Shown: positions 6 through 30,687, counted from the first letter of the stretch. The stretch is 64,000 nucleotides of DNA from Alphaproteobacteria bacterium (GCA_017546265.1 JAFYXG010000012.1:4249-68248), one strand, 5' to 3'. Translations and numbers: made by a program. Notes: a model not told the origin generated them from the sequence alone.

Positions 6-3000
6 TTATTCCATGCTGGTTGATATCATGTCGCCGTACATACCAACCTCGTCAGCACCGATAAAGCAACGGATTTTTGAACCGACATTGTCCATGAATT
101 CCCGGATTGCGGCCTGTTGTGCCGTATCCAATTCGGCATTCTGGACACTGTTCACAATCTGGTTGGTCAATATACCGCCCGCAATCGCGGTCACCCCTGC
201 ACCGATTGCTGCGGCAGCACCAGTACTTACCCCCTTTTTCTGATCGGATTCAGTCAGGCCCGCAACATCAAACAGGCTTTCACATTCGGATTTCAGGTTT
301 GACACCAATACTTTTGCCTGACCTTGTGCATTTTTTTGAACCAAACTATCATCTTGGACCTCTTTTGTTGTACAACCACTAAGATTTTGTCCACATATTT
401 CTTTGGCTTCATCACTGCTGAAGGAACTTTTTTCAGCATAAGTCACAAATTTCCGGGCCTGCTTCATGGTTTCAGATTCGACCCCATTACTTTTACGCCG
501 CATATTATCCAGCAGACTATTTGCTGTGGCTGCACCACCGTACGAAATATAATGGTTCGCAACCTGTGAACATTTTTCTTTTGTAAAGCCATTATCCTTG
601 CCCTTTTCACCGATTCCTGTCAGGCCGCTGAAGATTTCGCCCTTTTGTATGCCGGCACCCAAATAGGCACCGCCTACACCGCCACCAATCGCACCCAGTG
701 CGGTTAACCAACCCTTAATCTTGGGCTGGGCCGCCGCCGCATCGGCACGGGCATCTTCGCCCGCCGCCGCGGCCAATTCTTCCAGTTTATCGTTTGGTAT
801 CCATGAACCGCATGTAAAGGCATCGCCCGCCGCAAAGTATGCAGTCGCCCAATTCGCACCATTGTTGATTGCGTCCTGGATGCGTTTGTCATCAGACTGT
901 AATGTTACACGTACACGACAGAACGAACCGTACAGGTCATTACTGGCCACAAATTGTGTGGTCTTTAACCCAGCGGTCGCATAGTTCGCGGGAACCTTGT
1001 TCGATTTCAATTTTGCCCACATGAATGTAGAGCCCATATCACGATTGCCCATTATGCCGCCATTATTTGACGACATACACATATTCTGCTGTTTAGTCAA
1101 TTTGGCATTGTATTTTGCCTGGGCTTCGATTTCCAAATCGTAAATCAGGTCTTTGAACAGTGTGCTGGCCGCCTGGGATTCAATGTATGTTGTATATGCA
1201 ATCATGACAGGTTTGTCATATATCGCACCAGTTGCATCAACTGTATCACATACCCCCTGTTCCCCACGTGCATTTTCACACAGTTTATTGCCATTTTCGT
1301 CAATGGCCGCGACCTGTTCAATGGATTCTGTCATGGCCGATGTTGCACCCGCATCTATCCAGTCAGAACGAACAGACCCAGTTCCCCATGATGATTCAGA
1401 TGATTTATCGGCAATCTTTAACTTGTTCGTTTCAATCGCCAAGTGTTCCGAACAAACATCTGCATTTTTAACCGTGTCGACACACAGTCCCAATACGACT
1501 GTATAATCTAAAACACCACCAACCTTGTTCATGGATTTGTCAAAGTTTGCATCACCACTGTTGGTCAGGGATGAATAAATATCCGTGCGGTTGCGATAGC
1601 AGTTTACATAATCTGTGCCACACATGGATTTAACACACGATGTCGCAATTGACTGACAACGTTTTTTCATTTGTGCAATCGCCGCATCACTGTAATTGTT
1701 TGCCAATGACGCGTTTAATGAGGCAACAACACCAATTGGATCCAATTCCGCACCATCATCATATTCTGGGAACAAAACGTCAAACGCGTCCGCATCCATA
1801 AACGAATAATTATATGTGCCAGTTGAATTTGGATTCTGAGCCGCATATTTACAATTCGCGTCCGTATTCACAATAGACTGGCACCCGGTTTTAATTTCAT
1901 TACGGGTGTATTCGTTGTTGATAGATTTGTCCGCAGAACCAAATACCTGGGCATAGCAGGCCGCACCAGAGCCACCACCACACGTACGCATCGCACATGA
2001 TTTAATCGTGTTGATACATTTTTCCTTGGCACGGGTGTCAAATTTGTTCACCAGGTCTGTAATTTTAGCCCGCATCCCGGAATTCATACGAGCAGAATAT
2101 GCCAGGTCATAAACCTCGGCCTGGTTGTCTTCGTCACGCAGCTGGGATGCCGTTGGCATTACACCATCGCTGATAAACGTTGCATAGCAATATTTGTTCG
2201 AACCAATTGTGTCCAGACATGAATTTTGGATATAAGACGATATGCTGGAACGTGCAATAACCGATGTCGAGTCAACTGCAGTTGGAACTGCAGTCCCGTT
2301 GTTAATCGCATCAACCGTTTCAACAGTTTCCATGGTCGCATTTTCATAGCAACGATATGGATTGGCACTGCATGCGTTCAAAATACACTGGTCAACAACC
2401 TTGTAACAAGTGGACACAGCATTAACCGCTGCCAGGGCCGCACCTTCGGCAATCATTTCACCGATACGACTGGACGCAGTGGGAACCGTTGCAGATGTCG
2501 CACCAGAATTTCCAAACAATTCCATCTTGCCATCGCCGGCACAACGGGCCAGGGTCGAATCACAAAATACCGCTTGTTTCTTAAACTCAGAATTCGTGGT
2601 ACACAATTCAAAGTCCGCACCGCACACACTGTCTTTACGCAGACATGATGAATAGCGGCGAACACAATTCGATGTGTCGTACATGTTTTCAATCGCCGCA
2701 GCAGAAATCATTTGCCCCAAAACACTGCCCGCGGTTGGATATGTGTATTCTGTAACCTCGCCATACGTGTTCTTGGTCGCAACATTCGATAACGCAGATA
2801 CGTTAGATGTGCCAAATAGACTGTTTACACCAGCAGACTGACACTGGGCCAACGTAGACAAACACTGAGGCATCTTTGCATGAAACAAAACATTCGTTGT
2901 ACATTCTTCGAAATTCGGACCACAGGCATCGCCCCCCTTGATACATGCTGTGTAGGCATCTATACACTCGGCATTCGCCAACAATGTCGCCGCAGTCGTA

Positions 3001-3179
3001 GACCCACCAGACGTCACTGTACCCGCCGTGCCAGTCGTTGCACCTATGTATGTCGCCATTGTCGGCATGCGCCGTACATTCGCCGCATTAAGTACACTGG
3101 GACGTGCAGTCGCCGCGTTCGCCGCAGGAATTATGCAGGACAAAGCCAATAAACTTACTGTATTTTTGAGAAAAGACAT
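6..3179 (-). CDS. Large secreted cysteine-rich repeat protein (1057 aa) with C-terminal Gly/Ala-rich hydrophobic segments, function unknown
   Basis: Signal-peptide-like N terminus (MSFLKNTVSLLALSCIIPAANA); two ~100-aa Cys repeats starting at C72 and C172; three C-x6-C-x4-C-(x6-7)-CY repeats; two Gly-rich hydrophobic stretches near the C terminus. Confidence 0.85.
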   Translation of the reverse strand: MSFLKNTVSLLALSCIIPAANAATARPSVLNAANVRRMPTMATYIGATTGTAGTVTSGGSTTAATLLANAECIDAYTACIKGGDACGPNFEECTTNVLFHAKMPQCLSTLAQCQSAGVNSLFGTSNVSALSNVATKNTYGEVTEYTYPTAGSVLGQMISAAAIENMYDTSNCVRRYSSCLRKDSVCGADFELCTTNSEFKKQAVFCDSTLARCAGDGKMELFGNSGATSATVPTASSRIGEMIAEGAALAAVNAVSTCYKVVDQCILNACSANPYRCYENATMETVETVDAINNGTAVPTAVDSTSVIARSSISSYIQNSCLDTIGSNKYCYATFISDGVMPTASQLRDEDNQAEVYDLAYSARMNSGMRAKITDLVNKFDTRAKEKCINTIKSCAMRTCGGGSGAACYAQVFGSADKSINNEYTRNEIKTGCQSIVNTDANCKYAAQNPNSTGTYNYSFMDADAFDVLFPEYDDGAELDPIGVVASLNASLANNYSDAAIAQMKKRCQSIATSCVKSMCGTDYVNCYRNRTDIYSSLTNSGDANFDKSMNKVGGVLDYTVVLGLCVDTVKNADVCSEHLAIETNKLKIADKSSESSWGTGSVRSDWIDAGATSAMTESIEQVAAIDENGNKLCENARGEQGVCDTVDATGAIYDKPVMIAYTTYIESQAASTLFKDLIYDLEIEAQAKYNAKLTKQQNMCMSSNNGGIMGNRDMGSTFMWAKLKSNKVPANYATAGLKTTQFVASNDLYGSFCRVRVTLQSDDKRIQDAINNGANWATAYFAAGDAFTCGSWIPNDKLEELAAAAGEDARADAAAAQPKIKGWLTALGAIGGGVGGAYLGAGIQKGEIFSGLTGIGEKGKDNGFTKEKCSQVANHYISYGGAATANSLLDNMRRKSNGVESETMKQARKFVTYAEKSSFSSDEAKEICGQNLSGCTTKEVQDDSLVQKNAQGQAKVLVSNLKSECESLFDVAGLTESDQKKGVSTGAAAAIGAGVTAIAGGILTNQIVNSVQNAELDTAQQAAIREFMDNVGSKIRCFIGADEVGMYGDMISTSME

Positions 3180-3254
3180 TCCCGTACTCCATAGTTTTTA
3201 TTATTTTATTTTAACATAAAAACAATGGTTTGAAAAGGGAAAAATCCGTTATTT

Positions 3255-4214
3255 TTAGATATTTTCAAGTAAATATTTTAATTCTAACATGTCGTCTGGC
3301 AGACGGGTCTTAAAACGCATCATTTCGCCCGTTACAGGATGAGCAAATTCCAGTAATTCGGCATGCAACATCTGACCTTCGTGTGTACGCAAAAATTCCA
3401 ACAAATCACCATCTCGTACAGACCCCAGTCGGGCCGAACCGCGACCATACAATGGGTCACACAACACCGGAAAACCATGCGATGACAAATGAACACGTAT
3501 CTGATGTGTGCGGCCGGTAAACAATGTGCATCGCATCTGGGACACCCCAGCACGAGGCCATGCGTTTATAACCGAAACCTCGGTATGAGAATCACGACCA
3601 CCCGTCTTTACCATCGTCATTTTCTGACGATTGCGAGAAGATCGTGCAATCTGACCCGTGATGTCGGCAACCTCCCAATTCGGAACACCCCAAACAAAGG
3701 CTATATATTTCCGAGTAAGGTTATGTTCAGAAAATGTTTTTACCAATTCTCGAAATGCTGCGTCCGATTTCGCAAAAACCATTACACCACTGGTATCTTT
3801 GTCCAGACGATGAACAACACCAGGACGTATATCACCACCCAATGTTGACAGATGTGTATGCGATAAAATGTTTTGGACCAATGTACCCGTTTTATTCCCC
3901 GCCGATGGATACATCACCACACCACGAGGTTTGTTTATCACAATAATATCTTCGTCTTCAAACAAAATGTCCAAGTCAAAATCCGATGAAATATTTTCAA
4001 TCGCCGTGTCCGTCCGAACGTCCGGAATTTCAACAACAAATGTGTCTCCTGGACGCACCTTGTCGGCAAAACGAACAGAACGACCGTCCGCAAAACGAAC
4101 AGAAAAACGCTGAATCTCGCTGCGGGAAAATTCGGGCAGTTTGGACGATAAAAATTTGTCCGTACGTGTTATCTCGTCCGTGTCTGAAACAATAAATTCG
4201 CGTGTCTGTGCCAT
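3255..4214 (-). CDS. rluD: RluA/RluD-family 23S rRNA pseudouridine synthase
   Basis: Motifs INKPRG, VHRLDKDTSG, TGRTHQIRVH, QMLHA; S4-like N terminus; start moved to ATG 4214 (MAQTREF). Confidence 0.9.
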   Translation of the reverse strand: MAQTREFIVSDTDEITRTDKFLSSKLPEFSRSEIQRFSVRFADGRSVRFADKVRPGDTFVVEIPDVRTDTAIENISSDFDLDILFEDEDIIVINKPRGVVMYPSAGNKTGTLVQNILSHTHLSTLGGDIRPGVVHRLDKDTSGVMVFAKSDAAFRELVKTFSEHNLTRKYIAFVWGVPNWEVADITGQIARSSRNRQKMTMVKTGGRDSHTEVSVINAWPRAGVSQMRCTLFTGRTHQIRVHLSSHGFPVLCDPLYGRGSARLGSVRDGDLLEFLRTHEGQMLHAELLEFAHPVTGEMMRFKTRLPDDMLELKYLLENI

Positions 4215-4215
4215 G

Positions 4216-4683
4216 TTATAAATCCCGGTTATATTTATCCCAATCAGGTCCAACCATACAATCAGACAGGTCAATTGTCAAATCACGACCGCGGGATTTT
4301 ACAGGACATGTCAAAATTCCCGTTGTTGTCGCCTGGTCCGCATCACGGGTCGCATTGCGATATGCAAAGTTTATCGTGGTCGGTGCCGCAACACATGCAA
4401 TTTGCAAATCATTGTCCGTTTTCCCATCAGGTGACACCCATACACGTACTCCATACCCCAGACCATAACACGGAAAACCGTCCAAATAATACAAAACCAG
4501 TCCACGACCAACCAATTTCCGGTCGCCAACAAATCGGCCTGTATACTGGTTCAATGTCAGACCAGTTACAGCCTGCCAGTCGGTGCTGGTGGAAAAAATA
4601 CTGACACGCGGCTGTGCCCCATCATCAGCATTTGCAGACAACACAAAAAACAACGCAATCAAACATGTAATCAGTTTCTTCAT
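4216..4683 (-). CDS. Hypothetical secreted protein (155 aa)
   Basis: Signal peptide MKKLITCLIALFFVLSANA; abuts both neighbouring genes. Confidence 0.75.
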   Translation of the reverse strand: MKKLITCLIALFFVLSANADDGAQPRVSIFSTSTDWQAVTGLTLNQYTGRFVGDRKLVGRGLVLYYLDGFPCYGLGYGVRVWVSPDGKTDNDLQIACVAAPTTINFAYRNATRDADQATTTGILTCPVKSRGRDLTIDLSDCMVGPDWDKYNRDL

Positions 4684-5213
4684 TTTTCACCCCCAACAGG
4701 TGTTTCCAGATCAGATAACTCGGCTGAGATGGTCTTTGTCCCAGCAGGCAAAGCCGACAGAACATGATTGAAATTTACAACACCACCAGAATCCAATAAT
4801 GTCGCAGATGGCATGAACTTCTGACGCCCCAGCACACGACCGTCTGAATCCAAGAATACTATCATCAAATCTGGCACACCGTAAATATCATCCGAAATAT
4901 TCGTAATAGAACCACCAACAACAATGTGCGATACTCCTTCTGCATCTGTTATCGTTTCAACAGACGACACAGACGCAACCAACGGACCACGCGATACTGT
5001 GCGTGCCTGGTGCTGAGTAATGACCGCAATGGTAAATATTATCGCAGATAACAATGCACACAAAGACGCAAAAAACATCAACCATGTATTCCGCCGAGTC
5101 GGCCCCGCAACAGACCAACGATGACCACATACCGCACACTGGACCGCAGATGATGTCATGTTGTCAACCGAATATTCTGTTTTACAAAAATCACACTTTA
5201 CTTTCATAGACAT
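4680..5213 (-). CDS. MJ0042-type zinc-ribbon membrane protein with DUF3426-like periplasmic domain
   Basis: CDFC...CAVCGHRW zinc finger, one TM helix, beta-rich C-terminal domain (GSITN...VP.L). Confidence 0.75.
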   Translation of the reverse strand: MSMKVKCDFCKTEYSVDNMTSSAVQCAVCGHRWSVAGPTRRNTWLMFFASLCALLSAIIFTIAVITQHQARTVSRGPLVASVSSVETITDAEGVSHIVVGGSITNISDDIYGVPDLMIVFLDSDGRVLGRQKFMPSATLLDSGGVVNFNHVLSALPAGTKTISAELSDLETPVGGEK

Positions 5214-5230
5214 ACCTATACCACATTTTA

Positions 5231-6544
5231 TTACAATTTCAACATACGATATTTTTCCTGAACCTGGGAACTGATTTCGTTTATCGCGTTCATATAATCT
5301 GATACTGTCGCATTTTTGTTCGCAGATACAGCACCGAATATCTGACCTGATAATGTTGTCATGTCTCCATATACATACACAGCCAAAGTCGCCATGCGAT
5401 TCAATTCTACAAATGATACATCAGCAAAATTTGCAACCCCAGATTTTGTGTTCCAGTAATAATCGGTATTATTTGAATCTGCTATCATATCATAAACAAC
5501 CAACCTGGGGGTCATAGAGCCTGTAAAACCAACCGTTACAAACATTGCGTCTATGTGACCAGAAGTCATGTCCAGGGACTGATTTACCTTTAATATCGCC
5601 AGGTCGTTGGTTGCATCGACCGACAATCCAGACAAAGTCATGTTTGACACCCATAAATTATCCGCCGTCAGTGATGAAAACTTGCCCGTGTCGGCCAATG
5701 TAAACGCACCAGATATTTCCATATTTTTGGCATCAGATGACAACATGCCTGCAACCGTTGACGATACGGTTTTGAACCGCATATCCAATGTGGTGCGATT
5801 TTTAAATATCATGGTTTCTGATACAACATCAGGCAAAAACAGCCCCTGATTGAATTCTATATAGTTCGAATTCACAAATGACGCATTCTTGATATCGTGC
5901 CCAGCCAGATTTAACGCGGACTTCATTTTGGCATCGTCCGGATTACTGGACGGCACACGCCACAGATACAACGCATTGTCACGATTAACCGAAGTAGTTT
6001 CAACCAAACCATTTTCCATACTAATGCCCAGGTCAATGTTATCTGTATGCCACGAACCAAACGAACCATACGCATGGACACCATCTATGAACCCCATGTT
6101 GCCACCAGAAAGTCCAACTATTTCACGTGTACGAATTGGAGAAATGTCCGCAGCAGAACGAACCACAATCCCCTGAAGAGACGACTTTTCCATGCTGTCT
6201 GCCGTTTTCAGAATTCGCAGTTGATACATTTCTTCGCCTGCCTCTAATACAGACGGAGGCAAACCATACGGTTCTAAATCAGACAATTCAACGCGAGTTA
6301 TCGTTCGCCCAACCGTTCGCAACAATTCAGGACGATTGGCCAAGATATAACGCTCTAAAGCAACCTGAATTTCAGTCATCTGATTTGTAATCGAAATGTT
6401 TTCAGCACGCATAATCGAAGACTGATGATAACGAAGAATAAAAGGAACTATGACCACCACCAATGCAATACTTAACAGTAATTCAATCAGCATATTGCCC
6501 GAACTTCTGTTTTTATCTGAAAAGATTTTTCCGTTGCGTTTCAT
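5231..6544 (-). CDS. Type IV pilin-like protein, PilV/shufflon-N-like minor pilin (paralog 3)
   Basis: Class III signal SG|NMLIE plus hydrophobic helix; YLWRVPSSNPDDAKMKSALNLAGHDIKNA resembles the PilV constant-region motif LYR...LNxMxTxLDMGxNxxxN. Confidence 0.7.
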   Translation of the reverse strand: MKRNGKIFSDKNRSSGNMLIELLLSIALVVVIVPFILRYHQSSIMRAENISITNQMTEIQVALERYILANRPELLRTVGRTITRVELSDLEPYGLPPSVLEAGEEMYQLRILKTADSMEKSSLQGIVVRSAADISPIRTREIVGLSGGNMGFIDGVHAYGSFGSWHTDNIDLGISMENGLVETTSVNRDNALYLWRVPSSNPDDAKMKSALNLAGHDIKNASFVNSNYIEFNQGLFLPDVVSETMIFKNRTTLDMRFKTVSSTVAGMLSSDAKNMEISGAFTLADTGKFSSLTADNLWVSNMTLSGLSVDATNDLAILKVNQSLDMTSGHIDAMFVTVGFTGSMTPRLVVYDMIADSNNTDYYWNTKSGVANFADVSFVELNRMATLAVYVYGDMTTLSGQIFGAVSANKNATVSDYMNAINEISSQVQEKYRMLKL

Positions 6545-6547
6545 TGT

Positions 6548-7765
6548 TTAGCGTATTGTGTATTTATTGTTTTGTTGTGTCAACTGCCACCCCTTGCGGT
6601 ACAGCGAATTAAATTCTGTCCGTGATGGCATAGCAGGCATTTTGCCACGCGACACGGTAAAACTATTAAACTGAGGCGGCTTGGTCGATGGAAATGCCCA
6701 ATTGCCAAAACGAAGAGCCGCTGTGCCAGATACCAATAACTCGCCCGAGACGGTCAAACCAAAATTATCGTAAAATATCATCTCTTCGGCAGATACGTAT
6801 GGAACCGCAACAGAATTTACTGTTATCCCCGTAAAACCACTGACCGTTTTAGAACTGTCAGATTTTAATATCAAATCGTTCGCAACGTTTACAGAATTTT
6901 TTATCGTAGCACGGTCCGTGATAACCCGACCAGTTGTCGTATATCCACGACCGTTTAAATTATCTGCGTATATATTGCGAAAACCTGATACATCACCAGA
7001 TACACGCATTGTGCCAACCGATACTTCATCGCCATCTACATTTGCACCTGATGAAAAATATATCGTGTTGGCAGCCGCTGAATCTGCATCCAAAAATGTC
7101 GTATCGCCATTTTTTGCACGTACAGATTGGCCAGATAAAATGGATACATTATATACATGATGGTGCCCCATGTCCAAATCACGTTCCATGACATTCAAAT
7201 TATCATCACCAGATGTCGCACGATGCAGATACTTTGCCGTGTCTTCGCCCGCAACATCACGCGAAATACGATAAATTAAATCGCCAGGTTCAAAGTCAGG
7301 TGCCGCAACCGCCCATGAACCACCATATGCAATACCTTCATTTGACACAATTGCCGCATCTGAACCAATATGCCTGGCAACACTGTTTGCACGCAATTCA
7401 GAACCACCTGTTTCAAACGCCAAATAAACATCCGTTATGGTCGCACCAGTTACAGAATATTTGTCTATAAAACCAGCCACCGCATATGGCGATATATCCG
7501 ACAATTCGTCCGCAGCCAATCGAATTTGTGCCGTATCTGGCCATTTATCCTGGTTCATACGAACGAAATTTAGTGCTTCATCGCGTACAGACATTATCTG
7601 GCGAGCAACAGATATATCACGCAATGTCTCGTTCGTACGAGATATTTGACCATATACAAACGGGGTCGCAACCGCAATTATTGCCATGGACAATAAAACC
7701 TCGGTCATGCTGGCACCAGACGTATTATTCGCAAAAATTTTACTGTTTAACACACTCACTGCCAC
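6548..7765 (-). CDS. Type IV pilin-like protein, PilV/shufflon-N-like minor pilin (paralog 2)
   Basis: SG|ASMTE plus hydrophobic helix; YLHRATSGDDNLNVMERDLDMGHHHVYNV; exact GTG start uncertain. Confidence 0.7.
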   Translation of the reverse strand: MAVSVLNSKIFANNTSGASMTEVLLSMAIIAVATPFVYGQISRTNETLRDISVARQIMSVRDEALNFVRMNQDKWPDTAQIRLAADELSDISPYAVAGFIDKYSVTGATITDVYLAFETGGSELRANSVARHIGSDAAIVSNEGIAYGGSWAVAAPDFEPGDLIYRISRDVAGEDTAKYLHRATSGDDNLNVMERDLDMGHHHVYNVSILSGQSVRAKNGDTTFLDADSAAANTIYFSSGANVDGDEVSVGTMRVSGDVSGFRNIYADNLNGRGYTTTGRVITDRATIKNSVNVANDLILKSDSSKTVSGFTGITVNSVAVPYVSAEEMIFYDNFGLTVSGELLVSGTAALRFGNWAFPSTKPPQFNSFTVSRGKMPAMPSRTEFNSLYRKGWQLTQQNNKYTIR

Positions 7766-9110
7766 CTGCCATTAAACACTGTTTTATATTTATTCTTTGT
7801 TCCAAACGCTGCCAGTAAAGATACTGACATACCAAATATTGAGATATGGATTGTTTATTATACACACCTTCGAGTTGCTTTATAATCGCCGCACAGTTTT
7901 CAACCGCTTCATCGTCCGCCGATGGAGTTTTTATAATGGAAAACGCATCGTTGTTTACACTGGAAATATAGGCATCCGGTAATAATGATGTACCACCAGG
8001 ACGAATATCTAAAATAACATCGCCCGTCTTCCCAGAATTTAATCCAGTGGACGTTTGATCACGCAATGTAACGTTTGATGTGTACAAAGTACCAACCTCT
8101 ATCCCAGATTTACTGCTGTACTCCAACGTTTCATTGTCTATAAAAACATCCTGACCGCGGGTTGCATTCAAATACGATGAAATATCTAACCGTTCAACAG
8201 TAAAGTTTATTCTGTCAGATACAACATTTCCCCGAACATTCCATACCCCAGGCCCAGTAAATGCAGTCGCACCCGCCGTCATCGCAAAATCATATACAGA
8301 TATGTTGTTGGCAGTAAAATTCCCCGTATCTCCAAATAATGAAACTGTTTTGGCAGAAACACTGTCCGCGTACAAGGTGCCACGCATCAGTGTCAGGGCA
8401 GATTCGCCCGAGACACTTTGAAAAATAGTTTTAGCGGCAGACATTTCCGATATGTGATTACGAACCTTTTTTCCAGACTCTATGCCCGATATGGTCAAAG
8501 TATTAAATTCAGCACCATCAAATTCACCACGAACACAGAATATGTTGCCCGCATTGTTTAATACAAAACCACCCATGTCCAGATCAGTCAAAAAACCACT
8601 GTTTTCCAAACTGGGCTCATTACGGCGAACAATATCTGAATACACATCTGTCAATTCTATGCCGACACGAATAATACCCGGTGCTTCGTCAGACGGAGAT
8701 GCATAAAACCCAATTCGCCGAACCAATTCTGCAAGCTCAACCCCGTTCAGTTTTCCACCCGTTAATTCTAGATACGCAGATATAGATACGGGAGTTTTAT
8801 GAATCACCAAGGAAATATCCTGACCCAAGGCCGTTTTGGGAACAAACCCCAGTGGCAAACCATATGGTTCCAATGTATCAGAAAAATCACGCCCAGTTAT
8901 TACAGTCGTATCGTACGGAATATTATTCGCGTTTTCACGAATAAATATTCGAGATGCAGTCTGGGCAACATCAACCTGGCGTGTGGCAGAATACATACGT
9001 GCATCTGTGTTGCGACCCGCCATCTGACGCGACATAAATGGTATGAACGCAAAAATCACCCCCAGTGCCAACAGGGCTTGTAATAAAAAATTTCCACGTT
9101 CTTGGTGCAA
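7740..9110 (-). CDS. Type IV pilin-like protein, PilV/shufflon-N-like minor pilin (paralog 1)
   Basis: RG|NFLLQ plus hydrophobic helix; FLTDLDMGGFVLNNAG motif; likely TTG start at 9110 behind a strong SD (AGGAGG). Confidence 0.65.
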   Translation of the reverse strand: MHQERGNFLLQALLALGVIFAFIPFMSRQMAGRNTDARMYSATRQVDVAQTASRIFIRENANNIPYDTTVITGRDFSDTLEPYGLPLGFVPKTALGQDISLVIHKTPVSISAYLELTGGKLNGVELAELVRRIGFYASPSDEAPGIIRVGIELTDVYSDIVRRNEPSLENSGFLTDLDMGGFVLNNAGNIFCVRGEFDGAEFNTLTISGIESGKKVRNHISEMSAAKTIFQSVSGESALTLMRGTLYADSVSAKTVSLFGDTGNFTANNISVYDFAMTAGATAFTGPGVWNVRGNVVSDRINFTVERLDISSYLNATRGQDVFIDNETLEYSSKSGIEVGTLYTSNVTLRDQTSTGLNSGKTGDVILDIRPGGTSLLPDAYISSVNNDAFSIIKTPSADDEAVENCAAIIKQLEGVYNKQSISQYLVCQYLYWQRLEQRINIKQCLMAGGSECVKQ

Positions 9111-9284
9111 GGTTGTGCCCCCTCCTACGGATATCAGCATAGCAACAGAAAAAAATTATTGCAATCAGTTTTAACTTGATTTACTATTTGTTGCGTTGGA
9201 TGACAGTATCAAATGCAGAATGCTGGTGCTGTTTGAGGGGGTTCCCAATGATTATAAAATAAAAGTTAATTAAAAAGATAAGAC

Positions 9285-9593
9285 ATGCAAAATAAAAAAA
9301 ATCAATCTAATGTTGGACAGATGATTCAGCGTTGCCATAAGTGGCGACAAAAAAGAAAACAATATATCGATCAGGCCAGACAAACAACTGATGAGATCGA
9401 ACGTGAAAGATTACTGCAAACAGCAGAACACTATGGTCGCATGGTCAATACAGAACAGGGAAAAATAGATTCTACACGCGATCCAAAGGAAAAGGCCGAA
9501 GCAGCAGCAGCCGCTGAAGCAGAAAAAGAATCGTCCGAAAATGCAGATGACGAAGAACCTGGTTTCCCAGACTTTATAACAAATCTGAAATAA
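9285..9593 (+). CDS. DUF4167-like protein
   Basis: YIDQARQ...ERLLQTAEHYGRM resembles the alphaproteobacterial DUF4167 core (Y..lArdA...E.ylQhAEHY.R); acidic tail. Confidence 0.6.
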   Translation: MQNKKNQSNVGQMIQRCHKWRQKRKQYIDQARQTTDEIERERLLQTAEHYGRMVNTEQGKIDSTRDPKEKAEAAAAAEAEKESSENADDEEPGFPDFITNLK

Positions 9594-9597
9594 TCAT

Positions 9598-9622
9598 AAA
9601 ACGCACCATTTTGGTGCGTTTT
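9598..9622 (+). terminator. Intrinsic terminator
   Basis: AAAACGCACCA-TTT-TGGTGCGTTTT hairpin just after the stop codon. Confidence 0.8.
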
Positions 9623-9627
9623 ATTTG

Positions 9628-9655
9628 TTGAAATTTAACCGTATTTTGCTATGCT
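9628..9655 (+). promoter_or_regulatory. Putative sigma70 promoter of the dnaX operon
   Basis: TTGAAA-16 nt-TATGCT with extended -10 TG. Confidence 0.5.
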
Positions 9656-9677
9656 GGGGCAAAAGGAAGTTGTAAGC

Positions 9678-11261
9678 ATGGATAATAATTACACCGTTTT
9701 GGCACGCAAATATCGCAGCCAGGATTTTAAATCTTTAATCGGTCAGGACGTGTTGGTAAAAACACTGACAACCGCAATAAATACCGCTCGTATCGCACAC
9801 GCATATATTTTTACAGGCATTCGTGGAACTGGTAAAACCAGTACCGCACGTATTCTGGCCAAGGCTTTGAACTGTCTGTCGTCTGACCGGGCAACCGCAG
9901 AACCATGCGGCGTCTGTGAAAACTGTCGGACAATTGCAGCAGGTCAACACATCGATGTTATGGAAATTGACGCCGCATCCCATACGGGGGTCGATAATAT
10001 GCGTGATATCCTGGATGCAGCACAGTACAGACCAACAAACGGTAGATTCAAAGTGTATATCATTGACGAAGTTCATATGCTGTCGACATCCGCGTTTAAC
10101 GCATTGTTGAAAACACTGGAAGAACCACCTGCACATGTCATATTCATCTTGGCAACAACAGAAATAAGAAAGGTGCCCGTCACCATCCTGTCTCGTTGTC
10201 AAAGATTTGACCTGGTACGCGTGCCAGTTGAAACACTGAAACAACATTTTGCATGGATTGCAGAACAAGAAAAAATTACACTGACCGATGAAGCAAATGA
10301 ACTGTTGGCACGGGCCGCAGACGGGTCGGTACGCGATGGACTGTCCCTGTTGGACCAGGCAATCGCACAAACAGGCGGAAATGTCGATGCCGATGCCGTG
10401 CTGGACATGTTGAAACGTGCCGACCGAGGTGTGGTACTGGATATGATGAAATCTGTCCTGTCGGGGGACGTAGGACGTGCACTGAACAAGGTTGATGAAA
10501 TCTATAATAATGGGGCCGATTTGGCTATGTTGCTGACCGATATGATGGAATGGACACACTGGGCAACACGTATGCACCCGGCACTGAATGCAGGGGAAGT
10601 AAATAACTCGCCCTATACCGCAGACCAACGTGAACAAATCATGGACATAAACAATCGGGTGTCGGTGAATACACTGTCACGTATCTGGCAGGTCATGGTC
10701 GCCGCAGTACCTGAAATGCAGGCCGCAGGCAATCAAAAACAGTGCTTTGATATGCTGATAATTCGAATGATGCATATTGCAGATATGCCACCAATACCAG
10801 AAATTATTAAACAACAGGAATCCGCCAATCGTATGCGTGATGTAAAAAGCATACTGGCTGACCGTATGGCAAATACAACACAACCTGCCACCAACAATAC
10901 ACCTGTACCAGAAACACAAAAACAAACAAAATGCATCTCAAATGCAACCGAACTGGCAACGGCACTACAGGAATCTAAGGAAATTCTGTTATTCTCGTAC
11001 TACAGCAGTAATATAGAAATCGCAGAATTTACAGACGGAAAAATAAAATACTTTGACCGCAAAGGTGATGCTGATTTTGTTCACAAACTGGCATCTTGGC
11101 TGATGGATAAAACAGGCAAACAGTGGCAGTTAGAACGCGCAATGGAATCCGTTCACACAAATACAATAAATGAACAAAAGCAAGAAGAACTGGTCGCAGA
11201 CCCACTGGTCGCCAGTGCAATGGACCTGTTCGCAGACGCAGAAATCATAGGAGTCAAATAA
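9678..11261 (+). CDS. dnaX: DNA polymerase III subunit gamma/tau
   Basis: LARKYR, Walker A GIRGTGKT, Zn Cys cluster, DEVHML, SRCQ; start moved to ATG 9678. Confidence 0.97.
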   Translation: MDNNYTVLARKYRSQDFKSLIGQDVLVKTLTTAINTARIAHAYIFTGIRGTGKTSTARILAKALNCLSSDRATAEPCGVCENCRTIAAGQHIDVMEIDAASHTGVDNMRDILDAAQYRPTNGRFKVYIIDEVHMLSTSAFNALLKTLEEPPAHVIFILATTEIRKVPVTILSRCQRFDLVRVPVETLKQHFAWIAEQEKITLTDEANELLARAADGSVRDGLSLLDQAIAQTGGNVDADAVLDMLKRADRGVVLDMMKSVLSGDVGRALNKVDEIYNNGADLAMLLTDMMEWTHWATRMHPALNAGEVNNSPYTADQREQIMDINNRVSVNTLSRIWQVMVAAVPEMQAAGNQKQCFDMLIIRMMHIADMPPIPEIIKQQESANRMRDVKSILADRMANTTQPATNNTPVPETQKQTKCISNATELATALQESKEILLFSYYSSNIEIAEFTDGKIKYFDRKGDADFVHKLASWLMDKTGKQWQLERAMESVHTNTINEQKQEELVADPLVASAMDLFADAEIIGVK

Positions 11262-11719
11262 TGCAACAAGAATCTGGACGCTCGTTAATCGAAGTTATTG
11301 GCGTAATGGCAATCGCAGGTCTGATGACAGTTGCCGCCGCAGGTATGTATACAATGATTCGCCGAGACCAATCTCGCACGATCGCAGATGCAACAATGGA
11401 ACAAATTGCACAAGATGTTAAAATGCTGATGGAAATGCGAGGTACATACGAGGGATTATCAATTGACTATCTGATTAAGGCAGGGGCACTGCAATCAGAC
11501 AAAGCACCAATCGGTGGCGATAACTGGTCGGTCATAAGCAGTGCAGATGGACTATATTTTTCAATCAACCTGGTTGATTTGCAACATGCAGACTGTGAAT
11601 ACTTTGCCGCAAAAAAACCACAATGGGCAACAGCAATTTTAATAAACGGATTCGAAGCCGGTATAACAGAAAACTGTTTTGAAACAGCAACAAATCAGGT
11701 GTCCTTTATCGTAGAATAA
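11261..11719 (+). CDS. Type IV pilin, PilS (type IVb major pilin)-like
   Basis: MQQESG|RSLIEVIGVMAI; YEGLS...LIKAG, PIGG, FSINL...ADC and a second Cys give a PilS-like D-region pattern; ATG overlaps the dnaX stop. Confidence 0.75.
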   Translation: MQQESGRSLIEVIGVMAIAGLMTVAAAGMYTMIRRDQSRTIADATMEQIAQDVKMLMEMRGTYEGLSIDYLIKAGALQSDKAPIGGDNWSVISSADGLYFSINLVDLQHADCEYFAAKKPQWATAILINGFEAGITENCFETATNQVSFIVE

Positions 11720-12403
11720 ATGAAAAAATTTATTGCGTTTTTTGTATGCATAGCATGTGGACTGATGATGGGGTGTGTGCCCTATTCCAGTCCAGACAGG
11801 CAGACGTGGAAATACTTTCTGAACGGTGCCAGTTTTACAGATATGACAGAAATGGCACGCGTGGCAAAGCGACCTGTATATTTAGGGGCGGGCGGAAAAT
11901 TGATTGATGACGCAGTTAAAACACATGAAAAACTGGATTATGGCGATAAAAATACCAATGATAATATTGTCGCAACGCACTATATGACACAGGTCGAATA
12001 CGAATTATATGATGCGTTGAGAAAACCAGGTATTTCCGTTCAACGCGCAGGAACAGATGTTTTGGTCATTTTGGTACGTGATGCGATTATGGAACTGAAT
12101 GTCGCAGACATTTCCGCCACAGGTGATGATACGCTGAAAACAATAGAAAATATACTAAAAAAACACAATGCAACTATGATAGAAATCGCCGGTTATACCG
12201 ATGCTATGCGTGATAAAAATGCAGCAGCGGCACTGTCCATGGATATGGCACAACGTGTCGCAGTGCATATGGCACAACACGGTATCATTACACAACGATT
12301 GTTTATAACAGGACGTGGTGCTTCACGCCCAATCGCCGCCCAAGATGATATAGGTCGACTGACCAACAGACGTGTCGAATTACGCATTGTCCCAGCACGT
12401 TAG
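11720..12403 (+). CDS. OmpA-family peptidoglycan-binding lipoprotein
   Basis: Lipobox-like LMMGC; IAGYTD...LSMDMAQRV...NRRVEL. Confidence 0.8.
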   Translation: MKKFIAFFVCIACGLMMGCVPYSSPDRQTWKYFLNGASFTDMTEMARVAKRPVYLGAGGKLIDDAVKTHEKLDYGDKNTNDNIVATHYMTQVEYELYDALRKPGISVQRAGTDVLVILVRDAIMELNVADISATGDDTLKTIENILKKHNATMIEIAGYTDAMRDKNAAAALSMDMAQRVAVHMAQHGIITQRLFITGRGASRPIAAQDDIGRLTNRRVELRIVPAR

Positions 12404-28767: not shown

Positions 28768-30687
28768 ATGCGGGATTGGTTGGATAATCAGTATCAAAAT
28801 TTGTTCCTGTACGTGCCATTCTTGCTGGCAGGTGGAGTTGCTGCATACTTTGCCATAAACACAGAACCGAATTTCATTCTGATGACTATAATCATGACAA
28901 CAGCAATTGCCGCCGTGCTGTACAGGTGGACACCAATTATTTGCAGGGCAATTCTTATCCCCATTATCGGGTTCTGTTGGGCGGGTGTCTTTACAGGAAT
29001 AATTGACACACCACAGATGAAAAGAAATATCTTTGACGTCAATCTGGTCGGAACCGTACAAAACATAGACCACACATATGATAAATCCAGAATATACATA
29101 AAACTGAATGCCGATGATATCAACGCAGACAGCGGAACAGCAATTATTCGCGTTTCCGTCAAAGATAACCTTTCCATGCCAAAAATCGGTGATGTCGTCA
29201 GGATAAACGGCGGACTGTTCAAACCAGCCAGGGCATACGCACCAGAGACGTTTGACTATGCACGATGGGCGTACTTTAACGGGATTACAGCCACAGGTTA
29301 TGCAAATGATTTAACAATACTGGAACATGCAGGGGACGGTAATATAAATTCACTGCGACAATTCCTGCATGATAAATCTGATTCGTTTCTGGCGGATACA
29401 CTGGTACTGGGGTATAAGTCCAGTATCCCAAAGACAGACAATGAAATCTGGACCGCCAGTGGTATCGGACATGTGTGGTCAATCAGTGGTTTTCACATGA
29501 CACTGGTCGGCGGGTGGCTGTTCGCGATATTTTATCTGATTTTCCGGTCAATACCGTATGTCGTTCGCAGAATACCCGCAAAAATCCCGGCAATGGGGTG
29601 TGCATGGATGGGACTGATGTTCTATTTATTTCTGTCGGGCGTGGATGTCGCAACCGTTCGTGCGTTCATCATGACCAGTTTAATCTTTCTGGCGTTTATG
29701 GTCGGACGAAGTGCAATTTCGCTGCGGAACATAGCGATTGCGTTTGTTATTATATTTGCTATAAACCCACACTATGTTATGCAGGCGGGATTTCAATTGT
29801 CTTTTGCCGCGGTGTTCGGATTGGTTTGGCTGTACAGTGTGGTAAAACCAAAAATGCCACAGAATAAGTTGGCTAAAATTATTTACGCATGTGTCTTGAC
29901 GTCAATTGTCGCAACTATATTTACTTTGCCATTTGTCGCAATGCATTTTGGAAAAATTCAAATTTATGGACTGATTGGGAATCTGATTTTGTTGCCTGTG
30001 TTCTCGTTCATTATTATGCCATTGGTTATGGTTGGTGTGGCTGCGGCAGTGGTCGGAATACACACGCCACTGATTTGGGCAGACAATGTATATAATCACG
30101 CACTGGGGATTGCAAAATATATCGCAGATTTGCCATATGCTAATATCTCTGTGCCACATATACCAAACATCGCCATCGGATTCATAATAGTTGGATTTAT
30201 GTGCCTGGTACTGGTGCGGACAATTAAACTAAAAATAAATGTTATTTTGTGTGTGGCATCTGTGACAGTTGGAACAGTTATTATTTATACAAATCCAAAA
30301 CCAATATTCTTGGCAACGTATGATAATGAACTGGTCGCATTTTTGGGTGATGATGGATTGCTGAGTTTTAATAAATCACGAGCTTCAAATCATTACTTTG
30401 CGTTTGATACATGGAAACAACTGGTCGGGCAAAACACAAACACACCAAACAAACGCAGAAAACACGAAAATGGACTGTATAAATACGGCGATATTGTTTA
30501 TGTACAAAAGTTTATGCCACTGATGAAGAATATAAATCAGTTGTGCAATGACGACAGTGTCAGGTATATCGTGTCTTACTTTCACATAAAATCAGATTAT
30601 TGTCAGCACAAAATTCTGGACGGTGGTTTTGTAATCTATCCAGACGGTCGTGTACGATATACACAATCAAACCGGAGGTGGCAATAA
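28768..30687 (+). CDS. comEC: ComEC/Rec2 competence DNA-uptake channel
   Basis: DUF4131/OB region (FDYARWAYF), GHVWSISGFH, GFQLSF, many TM helices; no obvious metallo-beta-lactamase domain; start moved to ATG 28768. Confidence 0.9.
   Translation: MRDWLDNQYQNLFLYVPFLLAGGVAAYFAINTEPNFILMTIIMTTAIAAVLYRWTPIICRAILIPIIGFCWAGVFTGIIDTPQMKRNIFDVNLVGTVQNIDHTYDKSRIYIKLNADDINADSGTAIIRVSVKDNLSMPKIGDVVRINGGLFKPARAYAPETFDYARWAYFNGITATGYANDLTILEHAGDGNINSLRQFLHDKSDSFLADTLVLGYKSSIPKTDNEIWTASGIGHVWSISGFHMTLVGGWLFAIFYLIFRSIPYVVRRIPAKIPAMGCAWMGLMFYLFLSGVDVATVRAFIMTSLIFLAFMVGRSAISLRNIAIAFVIIFAINPHYVMQAGFQLSFAAVFGLVWLYSVVKPKMPQNKLAKIIYACVLTSIVATIFTLPFVAMHFGKIQIYGLIGNLILLPVFSFIIMPLVMVGVAAAVVGIHTPLIWADNVYNHALGIAKYIADLPYANISVPHIPNIAIGFIIVGFMCLVLVRTIKLKINVILCVASVTVGTVIIYTNPKPIFLATYDNELVAFLGDDGLLSFNKSRASNHYFAFDTWKQLVGQNTNTPNKRRKHENGLYKYGDIVYVQKFMPLMKNINQLCNDDSVRYIVSYFHIKSDYCQHKILDGGFVIYPDGRVRYTQSNRRWQ

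Follow-up and report, generated by a model that had tools for sequence, protein, structure and literature searches.

A conserved trio of PilV-like genes, predicted to encode large minor pilins, on the chromosome of a Candidatus Enterousia genome

In plasmids, PilV is encoded by one gene with invertible C-terminal segments, which raises the question of what three adjacent PilV-like genes without a visible inversion system might do on a bacterial chromosome. Such genes occupy positions 5,231 to 9,110 of a 64,000-nucleotide (nt) stretch of DNA (GCA_017546265.1 JAFYXG010000012.1:4249-68248, hereafter the window) from a metagenome-assembled genome of Candidatus Enterousia, order Rs-D84. As claimed in the original prediction, three adjacent open reading frames (ORFs) of 437, 405 and 456-466 amino acids (aa) are present here on the minus strand; we refer to them as P1, P2 and P3, P3 being the first gene of the trio and P1 the last.

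Analysis of this locus revealed homology of the three proteins to PilV, a modelled pilin fold, pilus machinery genes elsewhere in the genome, a trio of fixed order across Rs-D84, and no inversion system. We consider it probable, well short of certainty, that the trio comprises anciently triplicated large minor pilins of the PilV family, which would act as a cooperating tip set of a chromosomal, vertically inherited, R64-type type IVb pilus.

Relationship to plasmid PilV and prepilin signals

All three proteins carry the motif L.R......N.M..DLDMG...N, which aligns in register with the same motif of plasmid PilV; the likeness to the PilV constant region that had been noted from the sequence is thus borne out. 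In BLASTP comparisons with the PilV of an IncK2/Z plasmid, P2 was matched over residues 9-260 (E 5e-9), P1 over a stretch containing GG..G.FG.W and LY.W.VP...M...N.GGH.I.NA (E 7e-9) and P3 at E 0.007, and the alignments are collinear from the leader through the junction motif. A 48-member family profile was aligned to PilV by hhalign with a probability of 98% (E 2.3e-13; 208 columns, query columns 4-215 against PilV 2-228). When 72,556 plasmids were searched with P2 by tblastn, 32 records were retrieved (best E 0.04) and 13 of the 20 rows listed were annotated pilV, while in neighbour clusters of a protein atlas 80% and 71% of the members carry Shufflon_N. When the 48 family members were scanned one by one, Shufflon_N was matched by two (best E 0.0015) and N_methyl by 14. 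Because BLASTP, hhalign, tblastn and the atlas agree even though the family libraries are silent on the trio itself, we conclude from sequence comparison that the three proteins are distantly homologous to PilV over its first ~215 residues, lying under the Pfam threshold.

Similar to PilV of R64 and TP114, a minor pilin and adhesin of the thin pili of IncI1/IncI2/IncK plasmids, the trio proteins combine a prepilin leader with a homologous N-terminal pilin domain and possess a counterpart of the PilV junction motif (..LYR..VPG.PELN.M...I.MGGH.I.N..). Sizes are likewise alike (405-466 aa in the trio, 457 aa in PilV), and both occur alongside PilN/PilO/PilP/PilQ/PilR-type machinery. The PilV constant region is given as 345 aa for TP114 in the section of PMC9045228 used here. 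Unlike PilV, the trio consists of three fixed tandem paralogues without Rci or sfx, is chromosomal and vertically inherited across the order, and lies apart from the machinery genes; plasmid pilV sits in the pil operon next to pilS-pilT-pilU, which the trio does not.

The predicted N-termini read SSG↓NMLIE in P1 (leader of 16 aa), TSG↓ASMTE in P2 (17 aa) and ERG↓NFLLQ in P3, each being followed by a hydrophobic helix. The +1/+5 residues are N/E, A/E and N/Q, as originally read from the sequence, and they are conserved: Q5 is found in 48/48 P3 orthologues and E5 in 46/46 P2 orthologues, and for P1 the first match of a regular expression gives E5 in 44/46, the other two being mis-hits on an earlier G in sequences that show E5 further on. 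G-1 is invariant or nearly so in the orthologues of all three proteins, in which the hydrophobic helix is kept as well. The +1 residues had been called non-canonical; class IVb pilins, however, are described as having a variable first residue and longer leaders (PMC9045228, in the passage relied on here), and the +1 residues of the trio are therefore unusual in detail yet not out of class. If P3 starts at position 9110 (see below), its leader comprises 6 residues, like that of the small pilin encoded nearby, as compared to 16-17 in P1 and P2. Among the matches of a genome-wide regular-expression scan in all frames, five were convincing prepilin-type N-termini, namely those of the trio and of two small pilins. 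Type IV pilin features are accordingly found in the form of G-1, of E5 in P1 and P2 (Q5 in P3), and of a pilin fold modelled in P2.

This fold is seen in the AlphaFold2 (AF2) model of P2 (mean predicted local distance difference test score, pLDDT, of 77), in which residues 1-170 adopt a confident pilin fold, most blocks exceeding 90, with a pilin domain built of a long N-terminal helix and a beta-sheet (pLDDT >90). In the P3 model the pilin domain reaches 70-87, and further along the protein four C-terminal cysteines (C416, C438, C455 and C463) are invariant. The top rows of a Foldseek search of the PDB with the P2 model are pilins, weakly matched (best E 0.054), TcpB (7w63) standing at rank 10 with E 0.41. 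Structural comparison of the same model with VIA gave as best match the adhesin C-terminal domain 4wa0 (Z 6.8, rmsd 2.6, 99 residues aligned), together with left-handed beta-helix acyltransferases (Z 5-6, rmsd >11) and PilM (3eoi, Z 6.2). Profile searches of the PDB that started from the orthologue alignments of P1 and of P3 yielded the N-terminal helix of geopilin (E 0.006), the rest being noise, and the family profile matched the sequence of the phage tail fibre protein 9cuy over profile positions 207-350 (E 7.8e-6). On the reading favoured here, each protein would consist of a prepilin leader, a pilin domain, the PilV junction motif and its own beta-helical, fibre-like C-terminal part.

Two structural candidates were set aside. 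9cuy offers no template because the matched part of the fibre is absent from the published model, in which only N-terminal fibre residues are built, and the two rows at E<=0.001 obtained from BFVD with Foldseek have TM-scores of ~0.1 and are unusable.

Conservation of the trio and pilus machinery of the genome

No sfx-like repeat family was found in positions 3000-12000, where just short scattered matches occur, and none of the four tyrosine recombinase matches of the genome lies inside the window. With the gene order fixed as well, the absence of a shufflon holds as originally proposed. In 46 of 48 related loci, drawn from genome contigs whose titles include Candidatus Enterousia and 'uncultured Alphaproteobacteria/Rickettsiales', the order is P3-P2-P1, and the other two loci stop at a contig edge; of the 45 loci extending sufficiently far upstream, 44 have dnaX and the small pilin gene there. 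At the level of the order, the family profile finds matches in 79/81 Rs-D84 genomes, including 70/70 of high quality and all 18 genera (18/18), with mostly three matches per genome, and the tandem layout recurs in 17 order-level loci.

An alignment of 45 P1 orthologues has a mean column identity of 68%. Within each of the three proteins, conservation among 45 orthologues stays at 0.57-0.82 in every block of 40 residues, apart from the very end of P2, and is thus even throughout. The C-termini accordingly lack the hypervariability of shufflon segments, and diversification by paralogy as a replacement for the shufflon, which had been offered as one explanation of the locus, fits poorly with paralogues that are each conserved over their whole length. 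A quick 60-row tree of the N-terminal 235 residues, unresolved in its deeper branches, never pairs paralogues of one genome and unites the middle gene of all six families in one group (SH-aLRT 84). This topology indicates that the triplication predates the diversification of the order.

Outside Rs-D84, family matches were obtained in 31 of 298 sampled alphaproteobacterial genomes, often in longer proteins and in 1-6 copies; one genome flagged as unpublished (G120) enters this count only. Several adjacent PilV-family genes, some encoding 800-1100 aa, are also seen in other small-genome Alphaproteobacteria beyond the order (for example at G264:C44:12919-16469 and G157:C5:38261-40952). Tandem PilV-like sets may thus be wider than Rs-D84.

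Assembly genes of the type expected for a pilus of the R64 class are encoded elsewhere in the same genome. On the contig that carries the trio (C5), ~88 kb beyond it, positions 101644-106291 encode PAP_PilO-like and PilP-like proteins, a T2SSE ATPase and a T2SSF platform protein in the order of plasmid pilO-pilP-pilQ-pilR, with pairwise matches to plasmid PilO2, PilP and the ATPase at E 4e-6, 0.004 and 9e-46, respectively. The PilO-like protein scores 28.0 bits against PF06864 (cut-off 26.7), and the T2SSE and T2SSF matches exceed their cut-offs. A TcpQ-domain protein (65.8 bits) lies beside a secretin at C5:228365-230974, ~216 kb beyond the trio; the best NCBIfam model of the latter is the type IVB PilN (TIGR02520, E 2.3e-70), and a PilN-type secretin is present in 80/81 genomes of the order. 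Contig C11 encodes a 153-aa A24 peptidase (Peptidase_A24, 50.3 bits) related to plasmid PilU (E 1e-6). For the prepilin peptidase methyltransferase domain (PF06750), the best genome-wide score was 13.9 bits, elsewhere in the genome and under the cut-off, and a peptidase without this domain would suit an unconstrained +1 residue. A retraction ATPase was not found in the genome, the sole other T2SSE match being VirB11-like. The ATPase, the secretin and the prepilin peptidase having all been located, the genome holds an R64-like type IVb machinery, scattered and entirely outside the window, and the notion of a domesticated chromosomal type IVb pilus put forward in the original prediction therefore fits.

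VirB3-like and VirB4-like genes (C5:94187-96930) lie ~5 kb upstream of the pilO-pilR cluster and, together with the VirB11-like ATPase gene on another contig (C12:11899-12894), make up a type IV secretion system dispersed in the manner known from Rickettsiales. Adjoining the peptidase gene, two large exported proteins of 543 and 684 aa with shared C-terminal regions are encoded on the minus strand at C11:42186-45874.

Gene layout and neighbouring genes

The trio sits between dnaX and rluD, amid housekeeping genes (Table 1), with a 26-nt overlap of P3 and P2 and a spacing of 3 nt between P2 and P1.

Table 1. Features at and around the trio (positions in the window)
Feature	Position	Strand	Description
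P3, first gene of the trio	7740..9140	minus	ORF, 466 aa from ATG 9140
P2, second gene of the trio	6548..7765	minus	ORF, 405 aa, GTG start
P1, third gene of the trio	5231..6544	minus	ORF, 437 aa
ZitP-like bitopic protein, 177 aa	4680..5213	minus	17 nt downstream of P1
Exported protein, 155 aa	4216..4683	minus	ORF, signal-peptide-like N-terminus; 4-nt overlap with ZitP-like gene
rluD			Downstream of 155-aa gene
Small DUF4167-like gene	9285-9593	opposite to trio	Upstream of trio
dnaX		opposite to trio	Upstream of trio; small pilin gene directly after it
Small pilin, candidate major pilin	11261..11719	plus	152 aa, MQQESG↓RSLIE; weak N_methyl match, E 0.019

The true start of P3 is probably the TTG at 9110, which would give a protein of 456 aa and matches the end proposed originally, because an AGGAGG at 9126-9121 stands 10 nt ahead of this codon and several P3 orthologues have Met at -6. 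Within 9121-9140, the longest P3 ORF translates the conserved Shine-Dalgarno AGGAGG as 'VGGG', and 'GGG' recurs in the extended P3 frames of many orthologues; automatic annotation therefore probably begins this gene too early. A promoter and terminator scan of 3000-9700 was not informative (23 promoter-like sites versus 17.1±5.4 expected).

As originally described, the trio runs directly into genes for a zinc-ribbon membrane protein and an exported protein and into rluD. In the zinc-ribbon protein, an N-terminal ribbon of the CxxC...CxxC type precedes a single transmembrane helix, and the C-terminal domain is DUF3426/FxLYD-like; the gene for this protein follows P1 in 45 of 48 loci, the contig ending first in the other three. 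Pfam matches are sub-threshold (Zn_ribbon_4, E 1.1e-4, 22.5 against a cut-off of 30.3; DUF3426, E 0.0029, 18.2 against 27.7), and NCBIfam matches are to the MJ0042 finger and the FxLYD domain. The predicted domain order of zinc ribbon, transmembrane helix and periplasmic DUF3426-like domain matches that of ZitP, a zinc-finger polarity factor needed for Cpa pilus biogenesis in Caulobacter, according to the part of PMC5182063 considered here. ZitP is longer (311 aa versus 177 aa), the family matches of the present protein all stay under curated cut-offs, and the pilus on which ZitP acts, by way of CpaM, is of the Tad (type IVc) class. The 155-aa exported protein has no family match at E<=0.1 in Pfam or NCBIfam, and the position of its gene is conserved in related loci; from the operon layout we infer that it belongs to the pilus module.

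The small pilin after dnaX has E5 in 44/44 orthologues, with R at +1 in 29 and A in 15. A paralogue of it, a second small pilin of 153 aa (MNQESG↓RSMIE), is encoded on the minus strand at C8:41975-42436. A hairpin with a perfect 13-bp stem (9596-9624) begins 3 nt past the stop of the DUF4167-like gene. On the other side of the trio, positions 6-3179 of the minus strand encode a 1057-aa cysteine-rich exported protein with a glycine-rich C-terminal membrane segment and without a family match, whose position after rluD is kept in related loci; identity there is 44-76%, except for two loci at 27-38%.

Candidate roles of the trio

How might three such proteins work together? A short prepilin peptidase without a methyltransferase domain would cleave them after the conserved Gly, and the three together would constitute a priming or tip set of the pilus. 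P3, which has Q5 and leads the operon, would be laid down before the others, the C-terminal fibres would form an adhesive end holding a partner surface, and the adjacent ZitP-like protein would help to place or assemble the machine. The tip set would be a heteromeric counterpart of the homotrimeric CofB/TcpB initiator and of the GspI-J-K tip.

Both comparisons have limits. CofB is described as a trimeric initiator complex at the tip, held by its beta-rich C-terminal domains (PMC6048534), and TcpB as initiating assembly and, via Glu5, also retraction, its system having no ATPase for the latter (PMC5207764), in the portions of these two works that we draw on. As in the trio, CofB and TcpB, the single large minor pilins of CFA/III and toxin-coregulated pili, join a pilin domain to beta-rich C-terminal domains, and their systems lack a retraction ATPase (PMC6048534, PMC5207764), just as none was found in the genome studied here. 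CofB, by contrast, is a homotrimer of one gene product, whereas three different genes are present here, and no sequence or fold match of the trio to CofB/TcpB was obtained. GspI, GspJ and GspK are three different minor pilins, of which one, proposed to be the first subunit, is without Glu5 (PMC5207764), an arrangement resembling that of P3 (Q5) with P1 and P2 (E5). The same work argues that Glu5 is dispensable in the subunit that starts a filament, and notes that most systems with several minor pilins have exactly one without it. GspK differs in having a hydrophobic +5 residue and an alpha-helical insert and in being encoded last, whereas P3 has Gln, no such insert in its model, and the first position. 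The resemblance to GspI-J-K is one of arrangement, and in four Rs-D84 families it is E5 that the first gene carries.

Is a cooperating priming or tip set nevertheless the most fitting description? We favour it because of the fixed number of three, the unequal +5 residues, the even conservation, the PilV ancestry and the literature on CofB and TcpB. Several observations weigh against it, the first group concerning the proteins themselves. Neither Shufflon_N (PF04917) nor N_methyl, the two Pfam models named as a check in the original prediction, matches any of the three at E<=1, PF04917 likewise found nothing in any of the six frames of the genome, and Pfam and NCBIfam gave noise-level matches only, for example to ComGE and prepilin models (E 0.08-0.2). 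Similarity to PilV is limited to the first ~215 residues. The beta-helix of the P2 model (residues 207-316) has a moderate pLDDT of 54-81, the P3 model is poor (mean pLDDT 52.8, with residues 165-389 below 50), Foldseek found nothing in the PDB at E<=0.001 for the P2 model, and all VIA scores, including Z 6.8, fall within the range that the tool calls common. Other points concern the pilus: the genome (958 kb, 21 contigs) is 80% complete, the secretin scores 237.6 bits with TIGR02520, under the curated cut-off of 287.65, and PilP stays just below that of TIGR03021 (33.7 versus 34.65). The small pilin gave no BLASTP alignment with plasmid PilS, and its leader is short and type IVa-like. Association of the three proteins into a heteromer is itself a prediction. 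The suggestion that the paralogue without E5 acts as a cap in the manner of GspK or PilX stands in part: Q5 is found in 48/48 loci around the genus and in 6/6 first genes of one further set of order-level loci (family f3), but the first gene has E5 in 7/7 loci of families f2, f4, f5 and f6, that is, in 7 of 13 order-level loci, and Q5 is therefore not universal.

The main rival holds that the three proteins are alternative adhesins used singly, each capping separate pili and perhaps homotrimeric in the manner of CofB, so that the three fixed genes would provide three binding specificities and act as a hard-wired substitute for a shufflon. The trio proteins share 23-28% pairwise identity overall and align poorly in their strongly different C-terminal halves; plasmid PilV variants likewise differ at the C-terminus and set recipient specificity (PMC9045228, in the part cited), and other Alphaproteobacteria have 1 to 6 family matches of variable length. 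Interchangeable adhesins would, however, be expected to be gained and lost and to diverge faster, whereas the copy number here is nearly always three, the order is fixed across six families and each paralogue is evenly conserved within the genus; moreover, Q5 in one paralogue as opposed to E5 in two points to unequal roles in the filament. This rival thus accommodates the divergent C-termini, though not the strict co-retention and even conservation, and we regard it as unlikely.

Still less probable, in our estimate, is a pseudopilus serving mainly secretion or DNA uptake, with the trio as a priming complex that has no adhesin role. Type IVb systems also secrete proteins such as TcpF and CofJ (reported in the consulted parts of PMC6048534 and PMC5207764), an exported 155-aa protein is encoded in the operon of the trio, and a single pilus ATPase was found, the second T2SSE match being VirB11-like. 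The window also contains a ComEC gene (~29401-30219, within a 677-aa frame; PF03772, E 9.1e-58), and a ComEC-type channel together with a pilus could serve DNA uptake. ComEC is, however, widespread and unlinked to the trio, the C-terminal parts are long, fibre-like and akin to the PilV adhesin family, and a priming complex alone needs no 200-300 extra residues per subunit. That the proteins might be no filament subunits at all, forming instead envelope-anchored surface fibres that retain a pilin-like N-terminal anchor, appears very improbable: the lack of a Pfam pilin call and the unmodelled middle region of P3 would agree with it, but every orthologue preserves G-1, position +5 and the hydrophobic helix, P2 is modelled with a confident pilin fold, and a genome of <1 Mb still keeps a prepilin peptidase along with the complete set of assembly genes.

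Returning to the cooperating tip set, a more specific version of it predicts an obligate 1:1:1 heterotrimeric tip, a hetero-form of the CofB/TcpB homotrimer with the Q5 subunit first, on a plasmid-type type IVb pilus that the chromosome would have captured before the diversification of Rs-D84 and that would now attach these sub-1 Mb, transporter-poor gut bacteria to a partner cell or host surface. We advance this version tentatively, as possible yet on balance doubtful.

What is new here is the trio of PilV-family members assigned to a chromosomally encoded type IVb pilus; the kind of machine is not new. The finding means that the PilV family extends beyond plasmids and islands, and the trio provides a natural setting for testing whether the tips of type IVb pili are trimeric, with one gene used three times in CofB and three genes used once each here. 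Candidatus Enterousia and its order, Rs-D84, comprise uncultured bacteria that are frequent in the gut and whose genomes, at ~1 Mb, encode scant metabolism. In a genomic survey (PMC12306168) they are described as having genomes smaller than ~1 Mb and as being without the TCA (tricarboxylic acid) cycle, respiration and standard transporters; the relevant sections mention type IV pili for another lineage only and not for Rs-D84, and our literature searches retrieved no pilus description for Enterousia or Rs-D84. Since 79-80 of the 81 Rs-D84 genomes retain the pilus despite the strong reduction of this lineage, it is likely to be central to the lifestyle of these bacteria.

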